This document shows positions 10,217 through 34,938 of a stretch of DNA of 37,041 bases, in pieces. The stretch is taken from IMG/VR virus record IMGVR_UViG_3300045988_137870; one strand, written 5' to 3'. The notes beneath the pieces are model-generated. The model was not told the origin of the DNA and ran no database searches. It saw only the letters and a list, made by a program, of their open reading frames with translations. A program made the position numbers and the translations under genes. The stretch comes from a virus. Numbering within the stretch: the stretch's first letter is position 1; every line of letters begins with the position of its first letter.

Positions 10217-10648
10217 GTGACACCAAGACAAGAAAAATTCTGCGTTGAGTACCTGATTGATCTGAACGCAACGCAGGCGGCTATACGGGCGGGATATAGT
10301 AAAAAAACAGCTGAAGCATTGGCAAGTAGATTGTTAAGGAATGTTAATATTCGAGGCCGTATTAAAGAATTGCAGGACAAGGTTTTTGAAGACGGCATGA
10401 TGTCTGCAGCGGAAGCGTTGTGGAGGCTGTCTAAAGCAGGCAGAGGGGAACTTAAAGAAGAAGTAGTTGTTACCGAAGGTATCGGCGATGGGTTTAGCGA
10501 AGCAAAGATAATAAAAAAACAAATTTCTGCAAGAGACCAGATAAAAGCACTTGAATTAATGGGTAAACGCCACGACCTGTTCAGTTCTGACACGAAGATT
10601 GAAATGGTACCTGTGATCATCACTGGAGAGCGTGAAATCCATGAGTAA
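10217..10648 (+). CDS. terS: Terminase small subunit (Terminase_2/P27-type)
   Basis: The GTG at 10217 lies 7 nt after AAAGGAGG. The motif is TPRQEKFCVEYLIDLNATQAAIRAGYSKKTAEALASRLL. Confidence 0.8.
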   Translation: MTPRQEKFCVEYLIDLNATQAAIRAGYSKKTAEALASRLLRNVNIRGRIKELQDKVFEDGMMSAAEALWRLSKAGRGELKEEVVVTEGIGDGFSEAKIIKKQISARDQIKALELMGKRHDLFSSDTKIEMVPVIITGEREIHE

Positions 10649-29946: not shown

Positions 29947-30423
29947 ATGTGTGGGAAGACATTAAAACAAGTAATTATCGCTATCTGCTTATCGTTGGAA
30001 TTATCGTTTTGCTGTATACAAGTATCTGCGGATGGCAGCATTACGAATCAGGCAGAGCCAAAGCAGACTATCATGATATCAATAGCGGACTGGGACGAAT
30101 TGAAAACCGAATGGACCGGGCAGAAACTGGACTTAGCGCAACTCAGGCAGAAATTTACAATGCTGAATCTGAACTCCGAGGAGCAGCTGAAGCAGCTGGA
30201 AGTATTGCAGATAAAACTCGAAAGAACAGAGAAATCCTTGATGAATGCGACGACATCATTAACAGAAGTGAAAAAAGAACTGCAAGAATCGAGGTTATTA
30301 TTAGAAGAGTTGAAGAAAGAAATAAAGAAAATGGAGCACAAACAAGCGGTCATACGTAGGCAACGAGATATATATGCGGGGCTGTTTGTTATTACTGTGG
30401 GCGCAGCTATCGCTCGGAGGTGA
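29947..30423 (+). CDS. Signal peptide plus coiled coil plus C-terminal TM protein (unimolecular-spanin-like topology)
   Basis: The ATG lies 4 nt after an AGGAGGG SD. The N-terminal h-region ends in VSA|DG. There are long heptad repeats and a C-terminal helix (IYAGLFVITVGAAIA). Confidence 0.5.
   Translation: MCGKTLKQVIIAICLSLELSFCCIQVSADGSITNQAEPKQTIMISIADWDELKTEWTGQKLDLAQLRQKFTMLNLNSEEQLKQLEVLQIKLERTEKSLMNATTSLTEVKKELQESRLLLEELKKEIKKMEHKQAVIRRQRDIYAGLFVITVGAAIARR
29949..30359 (+). CDS. Alternative-frame ORF almost fully overlapping 29947-30423: N-terminal TM plus coiled coil (i-spanin-like type II topology)
   Basis: The GTG at 29949 shares the same SD. It has a TM helix (YLLIVGIIVLLYTSICGW) followed by a helical, charged region, and is enriched in GNN codons. 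Confidence 0.3.
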   Translation: MWEDIKTSNYRYLLIVGIIVLLYTSICGWQHYESGRAKADYHDINSGLGRIENRMDRAETGLSATQAEIYNAESELRGAAEAAGSIADKTRKNREILDECDDIINRSEKRTARIEVIIRRVEERNKENGAQTSGHT

Positions 30424-30448
30424 TCCTAAATTTAATCTATAGTATAAT
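30420..30448 (+). promoter_or_regulatory. Putative promoter of leader A (perfect -10 TATAAT at 30443-30448, weak -35)
   Basis: TATAAT was read directly. The hexamer 17 nt upstream is GTGATC. Confidence 0.4.
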
Positions 30449-30458
30449 ATAATTAATT

Positions 30459-30526
30459 GAGCCGTGGAGTATTGCACAAAGCGGACCGGAAAGAGCCTTG
30501 ATACAGAAATTGTATCAGGGCTTTTT
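30459..30526 (+). ncRNA. Leader/small RNA copy A: conserved 30-nt 5' block plus 11-bp terminator hairpin
   Basis: GAGCCGTGGAGTATTGCACAAAGCGGACCG is followed by GCCTTGATACA-GAAAT-TGTATCAGGGC and TTTTT. It is homologous to 33622-33691 on the - strand. Confidence 0.5.
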
Positions 30527-30544
30527 CCTTTCAAGGAGGATTAT

Positions 30545-31144
30545 ATGAGATGGTTTTTATATGCACCGCTACAATTACTCATTATGATAATCTGCTATAT
30601 TACCAATCCAGTTATAGTGATGTTTGTCGATGAAAATGGAGAACTGCGCGGATTCTTAAGGAAGTGGCAGACATTTGATGATTCTTGTGACAGTGAGGAC
30701 TGCGTAACAAAGTATGTCCCCAAATGGATGCAGTATGATTTCTATAAATATTACCGGGCGGAGAAACGGTATGACCCGAACTATGGACGGATGATGAAAA
30801 GATCAATTAACATTGCGCCGTTGCCACTGCTTGATAGATTGAAGAGGTATTGCTGCCGTATGTTCTGGCTGTCAAGAAACTGTGCATATGGTTTTGCAAT
30901 TGACTGGTTCGGAGCGACAATCGATCCGGATAATATAGTAGTCATTGATGATTATAGAGCAGGAGAATCCGAAAGGAATATATTTGTTACGCGGGATTTA
31001 AAATACTGGAAAATATATAATTCCATGCGAATTCTGAACACGAATTACCGATGGAAAATATATTTAGGATGGAAAATTCATAACGTGCAAAGTATACATA
31101 GAGCAATGCTGGCACTCCGAATGTGGTTCTGCAAAGCAAATTAA
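30545..31144 (+). CDS. Hypothetical N-terminally membrane-anchored protein (199 aa); moron next to attP
   Basis: The ATG at 30545 follows an AAGGAGGA SD. It has a TM helix (LYAPLQLLIMIICYITNPVIVMFV). I recognise no family. Confidence 0.65.
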   Translation: MRWFLYAPLQLLIMIICYITNPVIVMFVDENGELRGFLRKWQTFDDSCDSEDCVTKYVPKWMQYDFYKYYRAEKRYDPNYGRMMKRSINIAPLPLLDRLKRYCCRMFWLSRNCAYGFAIDWFGATIDPDNIVVIDDYRAGESERNIFVTRDLKYWKIYNSMRILNTNYRWKIYLGWKIHNVQSIHRAMLALRMWFCKAN

Positions 31145-31147
31145 AAG

Positions 31148-31178
31148 ACGGGGCGGGGAGAAATCCCTGCTCTTTTTT
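31148..31178 (+). terminator. Terminator-like hairpin after the moron
   Basis: The imperfect hairpin GCGGGGA-gaaa-TCCCTGC is followed by TCTTTTTTC. Confidence 0.5.
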
Positions 31179-31179
31179 C

Positions 31180-31399
31180 TTTGAGCGGCAAAAATACGGC
31201 AAAAATTTTAGCTAAAATACCGCATTTTAACGGTTATTGTTTTTATCATTATTTCTTGGCCACTCGGTAAAATCGGCAGAATCCAAATATAACGATTTTT
31301 AATATGTCCTAATAAAGCTTATGCTATAAAAAAGTATAAGCTGAAAAATCCCCGTTATTTGGGGACTTTTTGTGTAGACGGCAGACAAACGGCAAAAAT
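31180..31399. other. Candidate attP region with CGGCAAAAAT repeats (31186, 31197, 31390)
   Basis: It is non-coding and adjacent to the 3' end of int. It has three exact 10-mers as direct repeats and the inverted repeat ATAAGCTTAT...TATAAGCT (31315-31341). Confidence 0.4.
31344..31371. terminator. Bidirectional terminator (AAAAATCCCC-gttattt-GGGGACTTTTT)
   Basis: The hairpin has an A-tract on one side and a T-tract on the other. It lies downstream of int on the - strand. Confidence 0.6.
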
Positions 31400-32470
31400 T
31401 CATTTGTACATGGTTTCTATATATTGGTCTGCTTCTTTGCGAATATCATCTGTGTAATGAATATAGGTAGCTGCTACGGTAGTGACATTATCCCCTAAAA
31501 CAGCCGCAACAAGATTAATATCCTTTGATTTTGATAAAAGCATGGTGGCAAAGGTATGCCGTAAGGTATGAACGGAAATTCCCTGTTTTAATTTACGCAG
31601 CTGCCTATTCATGAGGGCATGTGTACTTGGTGTTGTCGGGATAACGCGCCCGTCAATAGCTGCAGGGGTATTCAGTTTCCACGTATTTAATCTGGCTGCC
31701 AATTTCGTATTCATATGTATGGTTCGGTTTCCGTTTCGTGATTTTACGGCTTTAAATCCCCGTTTTTCGGGAGATATCCAGTTATACTGTTTATCTATGG
31801 TGATTGTTTGTCTGGTGAAATTGATACTGTTCCATGTCAATCCGGCTATTTCTCCATATCTCATGCCGGTATTCAGAGCAATGAAAGCGATCATGTAAAA
31901 AATGGATGTATCACTTAATGCGTCAAGCAGTTGCAATGATTCTTTTTCTGTCAGTGCTTTTACCCGGTGGGGTGTCTTATCTTTCACCTGTGTGACACTG
32001 TCTGCCGGATTTGCTGTAATAATTTTATACGGATTGATGGCATAGTTAAAGATGGCACGAATCTGGGCGAAACGATTCTTTCTTGTACCACTGCTGAATC
32101 GCGCCATATCTTGATAGACATTGATCACATCTCCGGCGGTGATCTCCCGTATTTGTTTATTGCTCAGGGTAGGAATGCTGCGGAGCATAAAGAAATAGTT
32201 CCTTTTTGTGCTATATTCTAAAGAGGATCCTTTATCCCGCAAGTATATATTCTGTGTGAAACTTTTAAAGGTAATATCCGCAAGTTCTGGATCTGCTCCG
32301 CAGGCGGCATCTTCTTTTGCAGCAGCTAACAATTTGTCTTGGTATTGTTTTGCTTCCCGCAAGGTTTTAAATCCCTGTTTGGTTTTCTGTTTCCATTTAC
32401 TATTCACTTTATAGGACAGGACAAGGCAGATACTGCCGTTTTTTTCTCGTGTGGAAAATGAATATTCCAT
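31400..32470 (-). CDS. int: Tyrosine recombinase / phage integrase
   Basis: The internal start MEYSFSTREKNG (ATG 32470) follows an AAGGAG SD. Catalytic motifs are ...GMRYGEI..., HTLRHTFAT and ...AATYIHY. The longer ORF to 32698 overlaps the abi gene. Confidence 0.85.
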   Translation of the reverse strand: MEYSFSTREKNGSICLVLSYKVNSKWKQKTKQGFKTLREAKQYQDKLLAAAKEDAACGADPELADITFKSFTQNIYLRDKGSSLEYSTKRNYFFMLRSIPTLSNKQIREITAGDVINVYQDMARFSSGTRKNRFAQIRAIFNYAINPYKIITANPADSVTQVKDKTPHRVKALTEKESLQLLDALSDTSIFYMIAFIALNTGMRYGEIAGLTWNSINFTRQTITIDKQYNWISPEKRGFKAVKSRNGNRTIHMNTKLAARLNTWKLNTPAAIDGRVIPTTPSTHALMNRQLRKLKQGISVHTLRHTFATMLLSKSKDINLVAAVLGDNVTTVAATYIHYTDDIRKEADQYIETMYK

Positions 32471-32618
32471 AATAAAAATCAGCTCCTTTTCTGAAACAGG
32501 GCTGATTGTGCTATAATATATGCGTAACCAGCCTGTGGTAGGGTTGTTACAATTGCCGGAAGGATACCCTTTATCGTTCCGGTTCCCGTCGTCATATGTC
32601 CGTATGGCGGCGGGATTT

Positions 32619-33605
32619 TTATTTAAATATTTCATATAAACGACGTAGAAATTTCTCATGCAGACCGGTAACTTCTCTGACAAACGAGGCCGCGTCATTT
32701 GGGATATTATTTCCTAATGTCCTCATGGATGTTTCTATCATTTCATAGTTAATGGAAAATACTTTGTTTTGTTTAAATAACAGAGAAACACATAGTAGAG
32801 CGGCCAAAGCATCATCTTGACCATACTTATACAAATTTGTTTTTTCGTCAATTGGAATAAATAGTTTTTCATGAATTAAAAGTTTTGGTATTCTTGTCGT
32901 GCGGGACGCCTTTTGATCAATCTTATGAATATAAAGTCGATTATTATGCGCGCATTTATTGCGGATATTCGTAAGGTAATAAAGGATAGAAGACAAAATT
33001 GTTGGTGTCAATTTAGAATTGATTGACTTAGCAATTGTCTTTTTTAAATCATCTTGCAAATTATCATAAAAATTGCTCATAGTGCCAAAATCCATAATAG
33101 TATTTAATCCCCATAGTGGTACTTGATTATATACGTCCATAAAATGGCATATAGCTGGATGTTTTTTTCTTTCGTTAAATTTATTAATATCTCTTTGAAG
33201 TTTGTTGATTAATTTAATAACAAATTTTTTCTTTGAAGGGTCTTTTGTAAATGAGTCAGGAGAAAGATATTTCCAATGAGAAGATCCATATCGCAGAGAG
33301 AAATGAAGCGATATTAAAGATTTCATTTGGGTTTCAACTGTAACAATCGAATAAAGCAAGTTGTTCCTTAAAATAGAATCAAAATGATACAGTTGAAGAA
33401 AATGTTTTAGCGTCGTACCATTTTTATAATAATCTTCACCTAATTCTAAACTTTTAGCTTTGTCAATAAATGGTTCTTTATATCCGTTTATAAGATTATA
33501 GTACCCATATTGTAACAGGATTGAATCGGATCCGGATTGAAGTGAAATGTTCCTTTTATTTAGAATTTCTAATTGCTCTGAAATACTTGTTGGTTTAAGC
33601 TCCAT
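32619..33605 (-). CDS. Abi_2 (AbiD/AbiF-family) HEPN-like abortive-infection protein
   Basis: The start MELKPTS is at 33605. Features are ...LLQYGYYNLINGYK... and an Rx4H motif in LTNIRNKCAHNNRLY, typical of the Abi_2/HEPN family. Confidence 0.75.
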   Translation of the reverse strand: MELKPTSISEQLEILNKRNISLQSGSDSILLQYGYYNLINGYKEPFIDKAKSLELGEDYYKNGTTLKHFLQLYHFDSILRNNLLYSIVTVETQMKSLISLHFSLRYGSSHWKYLSPDSFTKDPSKKKFVIKLINKLQRDINKFNERKKHPAICHFMDVYNQVPLWGLNTIMDFGTMSNFYDNLQDDLKKTIAKSINSKLTPTILSSILYYLTNIRNKCAHNNRLYIHKIDQKASRTTRIPKLLIHEKLFIPIDEKTNLYKYGQDDALAALLCVSLLFKQNKVFSINYEMIETSMRTLGNNIPNDAASFVREVTGLHEKFLRRLYEIFK

Positions 33606-33621
33606 AAATATTCTCCGATAA

Positions 33622-33691
33622 AAGAAAATAGCCCTGACACAATATGTATCAGGGCTATTTTCGGTCCGCTTTGTGCAATACGCCACGGTTC
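33622..33691 (-). ncRNA. Leader/small RNA copy B: conserved 30-nt 5' block plus 11-bp terminator hairpin
   Basis: On the - strand, GAACCGTGGCGTATTGCACAAAGCGGACCG is followed by GCCCTGATACA-TAT-TGTGTCAGGGC and TATTTTCTTTT. Confidence 0.5.
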
Positions 33692-33702
33692 AATCTATAG
33701 TC

Positions 33703-33731
33703 ATGATACAGAAATTTAGATTTTTTGTCAA
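33703..33731 (-). promoter_or_regulatory. Sigma-70-type promoter of leader B/abi (TTGACA-17 nt-TATCAT)
   Basis: The -35 element is at 33731-33726 and the -10 at 33708-33703, read on the - strand. The conserved RNA block starts 11 nt downstream. Confidence 0.6.
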
Positions 33732-33855
33732 TCAAAAACGTAACAAAATTATCCTAAACCGTAACAAAAATATCCTAAAAGATGTTGAAAGTGACCTAAA
33801 AGGTGTCAAAAATTTTCAGGGTTTATGCAAACGATTTAAAACAATACCAATGTAT

Positions 33856-34872
33856 TCAACTTTTAATTACTTTTGACATATCTTTGACTATTTCAATTAT
33901 TTGTGTTGGCTCATCATTTGATCCATCTTCTTTTAAATAACCACTCTGGGGATTCGAAAAAATCGCTTTTGTCGTTTGCAACAAAACTGCATTGCGAATT
34001 TCCTCGTTACTAGTGGCCTTTACAAAAGTTTCAAAAGTACTTAGTGCATTTTGCTTATTTTTATTTATTATATAGTTATGTGATTGTGCTCGATAATTTT
34101 TGCCGCATGTTACTAGAATATAGAAAAGTACAATCAAACCGGTAAATCGTGGTAATATAGCTTGAGCAAATCGATATAAATATGGTTCCTCAAGTATAAT
34201 AGGACACCGCCAAAATGTTATAAAGGAATATGCCACAATGGCAACACTTACGCCGACAATCCATTTAAACCATATAGATTTACCTTTTTCAAACATATTC
34301 GCAGCTTCCTGGAAATTTACTGTGTGATTGGTTACACCTACGGAATTAGCCGCCTTCTGCACGGCCTCTGTTATTTCTCGTATATTTTCCTGTGCTGCTT
34401 CTCTTTCTTTTCTTGCCTGTTCTTGTTCCTGTTTAAAATTATCTAACGCCTCTTTGGCTTGTCGTTGTAAAGCTTCATAGTCAGTCCCCGCTTTAGTACA
34501 ATAGGCAACAATGGGAGAGATGGTTTTAAACCAAGAGTTATTATAGTTATTTGTGATGCTATCTATAAGACTCTGACGTACACTAGGCCCCTGCATAGAT
34601 GAGAAGCTCTTGATTTGTTCAATGGAATTAATAAAAGTATCCATTTCATTGTTCAAATCTCGTATTATTGACTCGGGAACTCTCATTATATCAATATCAG
34701 CTAAGCCTTTGAACAGATTGATCGCTGTTTCGAAATCGGTTTCTGCATCAGCGAAATTTAATTCAGATCCTAATTCATCACGGCGAATTAAATCTTTAGC
34801 GTTAAATTTTTTTATTGTGGAAAGATTTGTATCAAACTGAGTTCGTACTTCATCGGATAGTTTTATCGGCAT
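33856..34872 (-). CDS. Hypothetical protein: ~200-aa helical/coiled-coil cytoplasmic domain, two TM helices, helical C-terminal domain
   Basis: It has an AAGGAGGA SD. The TM segments are IWFKWIVGVSVAIVAYSFITFW and FTGLIVLFYILVTCG. It lies downstream of the repressor operon. Confidence 0.7.
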   Translation of the reverse strand: MPIKLSDEVRTQFDTNLSTIKKFNAKDLIRRDELGSELNFADAETDFETAINLFKGLADIDIMRVPESIIRDLNNEMDTFINSIEQIKSFSSMQGPSVRQSLIDSITNNYNNSWFKTISPIVAYCTKAGTDYEALQRQAKEALDNFKQEQEQARKEREAAQENIREITEAVQKAANSVGVTNHTVNFQEAANMFEKGKSIWFKWIVGVSVAIVAYSFITFWRCPIILEEPYLYRFAQAILPRFTGLIVLFYILVTCGKNYRAQSHNYIINKNKQNALSTFETFVKATSNEEIRNAVLLQTTKAIFSNPQSGYLKEDGSNDEPTQIIEIVKDMSKVIKS

Positions 34873-34938
34873 AATTGAGATCCTCCTTTTGTCTGCTATT
34901 TTCCCCTATCAATGATTTTCTTGAAAACAAATGTCATA

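Follow-up and report, generated by a model that had tools for sequence, protein, structure and literature searches.

Only in 2025 were AbiF-type HEPN toxins with a small RNA as guard established, and they have been proposed as the ancestors of Cas13. In Clostridioides difficile, AbiF is toxic, with R202 and H207 required for toxicity, and is neutralised in cis as well as in trans by the upstream non-coding RNA (ncRNA) RCd22. This RNA of 98–132 nt contains two RF03085 motifs, is made from a SigA promoter, and in most transcripts ends at a Rho-independent terminator ahead of the abiF ribosome-binding site (RBS) (Saunier et al. 2025, PMC12373285). PbAbiF of Prevotellaceae is a HEPN dimer whose active sites are blocked by small ncRNAs, one bound to each monomer (PMC12737573). 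The upstream sequences of the lactococcal AbiD, AbiD1, and AbiF are more conserved than the proteins themselves and are required for function or cloning (PMC13064643). Here, we analyzed a comparable locus in the IMG/VR virus record IMGVR_UViG_3300045988_137870, a stretch of 37,041 nucleotides that we refer to in its entirety as the window, in which a gene for a 328-aa Abi_2 family protein follows a short leader RNA. Judged by its sequence, a structural model, and analogy to the described systems, this locus is probably an AbiF-type (AbiD/F, Abi_2) RNA-protein toxin-antitoxin (TA) defence module carried by a temperate Dialister phage.

The closest described counterpart is AbiF(Cd)-RCd22 of the C. 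difficile prophage phi027/phiC2, which has in common with the window a prophage-borne Abi_2 protein with the RNxCAH motif and the order promoter, short ncRNA, terminator, RBS, and abi gene. The short RNA is in excess over read-through in C. difficile, and the same is proposed here. In contrast, RCd22 carries two RF03085 motifs whereas the window RNA has one hairpin of another sequence class, the two proteins share only ~27% identity, and the C. difficile abiF gene lies inside the lysis module while the window Abi_2 gene sits beside the integrase. Furthermore, toxicity and RNA binding have been demonstrated for the C. difficile protein and are predicted for the window protein.

The Abi_2 protein and its leader

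The 328-aa protein matches the Pfam family Abi_2 (PF07751; E=6e-41, 141 bits at a cut-off of 25.6), PADLOC AbiD (8e-46), and PHROG 2158 ('abortive infection resistance protein'). Its HEPN Rx4H motif RNKCAH comprises residues 215–220, and 35 aligned homologs show no variation at R215, N216, A219, and H220. Among solved structures, PDB 8VZ6 ('Abi family protein', PbAbiF) is the only relative by sequence (E=2.5e-13), and its RNSCCH aligns with the RNKCAH of the window protein. An AlphaFold2 model, for which 35 database homologs served as input alignment, reached a pLDDT of 94.6 and a pTM of 0.90. In a Foldseek search against the PDB, this model had a single significant match, 8VZ6_A ('PbAbiF dimer bound to ncRNA'; E=3.4e-10, TM 0.71/0.78, 320 columns), followed by a runner-up at E=0.4. 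PbAbiF-AbiFr (Zilberzwige-Tal et al. 2025, via PMC12737573 and PMC13064643), in which the ncRNA is a small hairpin, is thus the best and only significant structural match, at 21% sequence identity. The model indicates that the window protein is an AbiF-fold HEPN protein across its full length, and the assignment to Abi_2 with an Rx4H motif and a HEPN fold that had been proposed from the letters alone (hereafter the sequence-only reading) is confirmed by both profile and structure searches.

The sequence-only reading had further placed a strong promoter, a conserved RNA of about 67 nt, an intrinsic terminator, a Shine-Dalgarno (SD) sequence, and the ATG in this order ahead of the gene. All of these elements were recovered (Table 1): the sigma-70-type promoter is the best site in a 1.8-kb promoter scan, and the SD and ATG of the abi gene follow 8 and 19 nt past the terminator stem, respectively. 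Only the length had to be revised, to ~77 nt, as the predicted transcription start and stop of the leader RNA are placed by the −10 box and the U-tract. The leader folds more stably than its shuffled versions (z = −5.0 to −6.6), and the covariance model R1 scores 90 bits at its position. A protein-coding alternative, a 355-aa ORF with a GTG start that runs through the leader, was rejected: all four leader differences between the two RNA copies of the window change an amino acid in the GTG frame, and we therefore regard the leader as non-coding. The same promoter precedes the same RNA in six further loci (L031, L039, L048, L058, L081, and L084; loci are given here by such handles). Two tandem 21-bp repeats adjoin the −35 box of the Abi_2 promoter on its upstream side and, by their sequence and position, may form a regulator binding site; they are missing at the otherwise similar promoter of L031 (Dialister sp. 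Marseille-QA0723).

This layout recurs throughout the family. We surveyed 80 Abi_2 loci from IMG/VR and inspected 58 distinct upstream regions by eye, in nearly all of which a promoter (9–12 of 12 matches) is followed by a short RNA, then by a terminator-like hairpin and its T-run, and last by the start codon. Based on these sequences, phage-borne Abi_2 genes almost universally have the promoter-RNA-terminator-abi layout. Together with its publication for AbiF and RCd22 (PMC12373285), this supports the type III TA-like interpretation of the sequence-only reading at the level of sequence, and the link between AbiF-family proteins and a neutralizing upstream ncRNA, which that reading had taken from the literature, agrees with the same source.

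The leaders surveyed fall into several different, unmodelled RNA sequence classes. R1 scores of the other Abi_2 leaders (17–28 bits) are uninformative on homology between these classes, because unrelated terminators of the same loci score alike (17–24 bits). The more divergent Abi_2-D (L008) and Abi_2-F (L071) of the same phage group have their own RNAs, GAGUUGACCGAAGCUCUUCGGAGCCUGGUC and GAAUUGGCCGUAUCUCUUCGGAGGAGGGCC, of the same build. In L008 (IMGVR_UViG_3300029703_000292, near 10220, minus strand), three promoter-RNA-terminator modules accompany two divergent Abi_2 genes in the order D-type RNA, Abi_2-D, orphan D'-type RNA, core-type RNA, and Abi_2-E. A large leader class (L091–L138 and others) has GGnAUCUCUACGGGGACCnnnnCG before the terminator; an Rfam scan of one locus of this class (L035, Streptococcus phage IPP16) returned no family. 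Other phage contigs (L167, L173, L195, and L223) have the 15-mer of this class within an element that resembles a tRNA or tmRNA. A control for the rate of orphan copies with the 'CUACGGGG' RNA class was confounded by the tRNA/tmRNA-like 15-mer, and few true orphans, e.g. L189, are recognizable.

Table 1. Positions of the Abi_2 locus, the second RNA copy, and adjoining features in the window
Feature	Position	Strand	Basis or detail
Abi_2 / AbiD-AbiF family HEPN protein, 328 aa, putative RNase toxin	32619..33605	−	Pfam, PADLOC, PHROG, fold
Shine-Dalgarno GGAG	33613..33616	−	7 nt before ATG at 33605; read from sequence
Leader ncRNA, ~77 nt	33620..33696	−	inferred start 7 nt past −10 box, to U-tract; promoter/terminator scan, fold, R1
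Conserved core UUGAACCGUGGCGUAUUGCACAAAGCGGACC in leader RNA	33663..33693	−	near-invariance across loci
Small hairpin in core	33688-33685 with 33669-33666	−	stem CCGU/GCGG, inner pairs GU/AC
Intrinsic-terminator hairpin	33624..33662	−	18 pairs, 3-nt loop, then UUUU at 33623-33620
Sigma-70-type promoter TTGACA-17-TATCAT	33703..33731	−	11/12 matches
Two tandem 21-bp repeats	33735..33776		AAAACGTAACAAAATTATCCT and 90% identical copy AAACCGTAACAAAAATATCCT; repeat search
Second, toxin-less RNA copy	30457..30528	+	core 30457-30487, hairpin 30488-30528
−10 box TATAAT of second RNA copy	30443-30448	+	
DUF7338 gene, 199 aa	30545..31144	+	Pfam PF24027, E=5e-32
34-nt direct repeats, 76% identical	31174-31207 and 31367-31400		containing ACGGCAAAAATT
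Integrase ORF as called by program	31400-32698	−	over-extended; likely start ATG near 32475
Terminator-like hairpin	32584-32615	+	14 pairs and T-run
338-aa protein	33856-34872	−	weak PADLOC LeoBC, E=5e-5

The leader RNA and the Abi_2 clade

An Rfam scan of the whole window at the gathering score found no family, including RF03085. Thr_leader, which appeared at E<=10, was rejected as the identity of the leader: its 29.9 bits were driven by the terminator and lay under its 55-bit cut-off. By these searches, the leader RNA is a new class absent from Rfam, with a ~31-nt, almost invariant hairpin core. While an AbiF protein with an ncRNA is of a known kind, public RNA libraries hold one RNA class for AbiF-type toxins (RF03085), to which the locus adds a compact class for the Abi_2 clade of the Veillonellaceae (Dialister) as well as widespread toxin-less copies under apparent selection.

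The distribution of the core was determined by exact-pattern scans with one of its 19-mers, which detected it in 26 IMG/VR loci, in 5 true genome loci (Dialister spp., Veillonellaceae DNF00626, and a metagenome-assembled genome labelled Fusicatenibacter), and in 46 true loci from human gut or oral metagenomes (50 matches in all). Over all these viral, genome, and metagenome loci the core is near-invariant. Patterns anchored on either half of the core revealed no new loci with near-variants in IMG/VR, and variants surfaced only in loci reached via diverged Abi_2 proteins.

To follow the RNA along the protein family, contigs of progressively more diverged members were fetched for homologs from protein databases, whereas members B and C came from the RNA scans. 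In this sample, the RNA lies directly upstream of abi in all 10 clade members examined, at 45–100% identity to the window protein (member A, 100%): L234 (72%), L235 (69%; Dialister pneumosintes), C (L046; 58%), B (L003; 55%), L241 (52%), L236 (51%), L239 (50%), L237 (47%), and L238 (45%). Promoters, terminators, and neighbours differ among these 10 members, and the L238 module is not in a prophage at all, being located on the chromosome between CorA and DUF1934/ArgRS. A homolog of 36% identity (L240) has a different RNA upstream.

The core itself changes within this clade. It is identical in A, B, and C, whose proteins share 55–58% identity, has one loop change (CACgAAG) at 72% Abi_2 identity, and at 45–52% identity has its stem converted from CCGU/GCGG to CCGG/CCGG, with the closing pair changed on both sides, from U.G to G-C. 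L237 (47%) has the stem CCGC/GCGG together with a rewritten interior. By these comparisons, the RNA diverges in step with the Abi_2 protein, and co-inheritance supports that the RNA is tied to this clade. The conservation of RNA over protein resembles that of the lactococcal AbiD/AbiD1/AbiF/AbiD-like group, although these systems are plasmid-borne in Lactococcus and have another RNA sequence, whereas the window system is phage-borne. Across 15 sequences, the proposed core hairpin is 98.9% paired, and its closing pair is UG in 10, GC in 4, and CG in 1 of them (covariation score 0.20 vs. 0.06 in shuffles and 0–0.08 in slid controls). The terminator hairpin has compensatory changes at 10 pairs across loci.

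Toxin-less copies of the RNA and rival explanations

According to the sequence-only reading, the RNA is present in a single copy. This is correct for the locus but not for the window, in which a second, toxin-less copy is found 3.1 kb from the first as a 50-nt, 90% identical inverted repeat (30456-30505, plus strand). A 20-mer common to both copies occurred in none of 100 window shuffles. R1 assigns 101.7 bits to the second copy, and its hairpin is predicted at −33 kcal/mol. The promoter/terminator scan called no canonical −35 box or terminator there, and the −10 box is without the TG extension typical of most sister phages (TAGTATAAT instead of TGGTATAAT). The copy is positioned between the last gene of the lysis region and the DUF7338 gene, whose SD and ATG follow directly.

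DUF7338 is not the partner of the RNA. Among 43 close DUF7338 loci, sampled independently of the RNA, the cassette is intact in 18, partly deleted in 2, and absent from 23, and in homologs of 40–59% identity the gene follows immediately on the late gene before it, with no cassette in between. Since the cassette is missing at 23 of the 43 close loci and at all distant ones, DUF7338 does not need it, and the orphan RNA is, on this sequence evidence, dispensable for this gene. In the cassette-bearing DUF7338 loci, nucleotide diversity (pi) is 0.037 in the core, compared to 0.19 in the 40 nt upstream, 0.12 from terminator to SD, and 0.12 at the start of the DUF7338 coding region. The low diversity of the core relative to its flanks, together with the cassette-less loci, thus indicates an orphan RNA that is dispensable to its neighbour and yet itself under purifying selection. 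An Abi_2 gene is also present in the available sequence for only 1 of the 42 DUF7338-linked copies, that of the window, and an IMG/VR contig with a 100% identical Abi_2 (L275) is missing the DUF7338-linked cassette. A natural deletion series of the orphan cassette was also observed: L255 and L268 retain the terminator but have lost the promoter together with the core's 5' part, and L263 and L270 have lost the cassette altogether. No slowly decayed cores were seen among the IMG/VR DUF7338 loci. Two readings of the cassette at the DNA level were considered and rejected: the presence/absence junctions show no terminal repeats or target duplications of an element resembling a miniature inverted-repeat transposable element, and, against an integrase or repressor site, the core is shared across phages whose tyrosine integrases and repressors differ and among which a serine recombinase is also represented.

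The protein family and fold, the recurrent promoter-RNA-terminator-gene anatomy, and the co-inheritance of RNA and Abi_2 are the observations on which we base a model of the locus, whereas Abi_2 toxicity, RNA binding, neutralization, and trigger are putative here and taken over from the C. difficile and Prevotellaceae systems. A constitutive sigma-70 promoter would produce the ~77-nt RNA, and most transcripts would stop at the hairpin terminator, so that the short RNA would far outnumber the read-through transcripts carrying the SD and abi (cis attenuation). The 5' hairpin CCGU-GGC-GU-AUUGC-AC-AAA-GCGG, with its fixed flanks UUGA and ACC, would bind the HEPN dimer and block the RNKCAH active site, in a binding mode modelled on AbiFr in PbAbiF and on RCd22 for the C. 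difficile AbiF. Once infection or some other disturbance shifts the balance of RNA and protein, the RNase would be freed and would thereby stop growth.

Several observations speak against this model and need to be weighed. Membership of the leader in the published AbiF-associated RNA class, which the sequence-only reading had raised, did not hold up: RF03085 (consensus CCCGCCAAGCCUCUCA[5]GCUCAAAUCGGCGGGU) has no match in 33500-33900 at E<=10, while phiC2 as positive control scored 37.6 bits at a gathering score of 37 bits. Only in its 3' half does the window core look like RF03085 (GCaCAAAgCGG vs. GCuCAAAuCGG). The core hairpin is weak, with 4+2 pairs, and the sequence support for its structure is modest, amounting to one covarying pair that may reflect few events. 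Additionally, the gene downstream of most core copies is DUF7338, which would not be predicted for an antitoxin of Abi alone. In L084, a Fic gene takes the place of Abi_2 behind the core while the promoter and integrase of the window are kept, and tyrosine or serine recombinases follow the core in L071, L028, L038, and L085. Other core copies precede Abi_2 A, B, or C, and one stands free between the two Abi_2 genes of L008. As the same RNA is found before unrelated genes, it is, by its sequence context, a separable module.

This separability could mean that the leader is a portable cis-acting expression cassette and has no antitoxin function, keeping Abi_2, Fic, DUF7338, and integrase expression low or conditional, perhaps via a host or phage factor that acts on the conserved core. 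Such a cassette would fit the presence of the same core ahead of four unrelated gene types, each time with an SD straight after the hairpin, and the exchange of Abi_2 for Fic in L084; cis attenuation is, moreover, part of the published RCd22 mechanism, too. However, attenuation requires the terminator alone, which is the variable part, leaving the near-invariant 31-nt core unexplained, and no antiterminator pairing is evident between the core and the varied terminator arms. DUF7338 does without the cassette at the loci described above, and the RNA accompanies the Abi_2 clade to the non-prophage site of L238 and diverges with the protein, all of which makes a purely cis-acting role unlikely. 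An own promoter, a conserved 5' part, and a variable terminator are also the classic build of a small RNA (sRNA), and the RNA, as an sRNA of Dialister prophages, might act independently and in trans by base pairing with a host or phage mRNA, its neighbours being incidental. Free-standing copies (L008, L071, L028, L038, L085, and L018) and the purifying selection on the core that persists without Abi_2 nearby are consistent with this. An antisense target search of the 37-kb phage genome remained at chance level, though, with a longest match of 10 nt compared to 9–12 nt in shuffles, ~31 invariant nt would be an unusually long seed, and a host-directed seed would predict neither the linkage to one Abi_2 clade in every member examined nor the joint change of RNA and protein. 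We thus rate a base-pairing sRNA as improbable.

The order promoter, RNA, terminator, and toxin is also that of classical type III systems such as ToxIN/AbiQ, in which an upstream RNA antitoxin and a ratio-setting terminator work as proposed for the window locus. There, the antitoxin units are cut from a tandem-repeat precursor by the toxin, a ToxN-fold endoRNase, and then form an assembly with it. In contrast, the window locus has a single RNA unit and no tandem array, and its HEPN Abi_2 protein does not have the ToxN/AbiQ fold, PbAbiF being its only significant match in the PDB. The anatomy and the predicted fold contradict a ToxIN/AbiQ-type system, to which we give next to no credence, and we consider an AbiF-type RNA-protein module the likely identity of the locus.

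The toxin-less copies, which include the second copy of the window and are found in ~40% of the related DUF7338-bearing Dialister phages, may have a role of their own within such an AbiF-type framework. By analogy, they can tentatively be read as anti-Abi decoys that mimic the antitoxin RNA, a possibility for which we see somewhat less in favour than against. As a decoy, the free-standing RNA would neutralize Abi_2 A, B, or C of a resident prophage and let the incoming phage replicate, and the resulting arms race would explain why the core is either near-invariant or deleted and why the RNA is identical across toxins of only 55–58% identity. A phage-borne mimic of an antitoxin RNA, the pseudo-ToxI of phage phiTE, was reportedly described by Blower et al. 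in 2012. If the decoy reading is true, the Dialister copies would be the AbiF-system analogue of pseudo-ToxI. Related observations are that a hairpin at the sk1 cos site inhibits AbiF (PMC13064643) and that the lytic cyanophage S-CREM1 carries an orphan RF03085 sRNA (PMC9964418). Like these phage-borne mimics and orphans, the Dialister copies are Abi-associated RNAs on a phage without the toxin; they differ in that they belong to temperate phages, stand last in the late operon, and have a −10 box of their own, and their anti-defence activity is hypothetical. Alternatively, the second copy in the window could raise the antitoxin dose. Finding the same RNA without a toxin in many gut phages, with a core apparently under purifying selection, offers a concrete case in which RNA-based counter-defence against Abi, or control of the antitoxin dosage, can be tested for the human gut virome. 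Should the orphans prove inert, the locus would be one more AbiF-type module.

Genome context

By its gene content and order, the window reads as a complete, circularly permuted genome of a temperate siphovirus-type phage that is joined across the phage attachment site (attP), and the likely host is Dialister (Veillonellaceae). A blastn search of 30300-34900 against GenBank phages gave no match. Replication genes (1.5–8.8 kb) are followed by the terminase, an SPP1-type portal, and the tape measure (10.6–23 kb), the tail/lysis region, the second RNA copy, and DUF7338. After a gap of ~250 bp come the integrase and Abi_2 genes, both on the minus strand, the leader RNA, two unknown genes, a cI-like S24 repressor (minus strand), and a cro-like helix-turn-helix gene (plus strand). 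The probable attP is the gap that separates DUF7338 from the integrase gene's 3' end, and the 34-nt direct repeats within this gap could be arm-type sites.

Fic/DOC genes were also observed in the integrase-proximal slot that holds Abi_2 in the window: apart from the L084 gene, which is found behind the same promoter and core, a Fic gene follows the Abi_2 module in L239 (L038/L239). Toxin or defence cargo thus appears to be exchanged at this slot. The 338-aa protein encoded just upstream of the Abi_2 promoter has no Pfam match and a weak PADLOC match (Table 1), and may be another prophage accessory or defence gene. Finally, the stretch from the stop codon of Abi_2 to the start of the integrase holds a terminator-like hairpin that faces against both genes, and the integrase ORF called by the program extends beyond its likely start codon.

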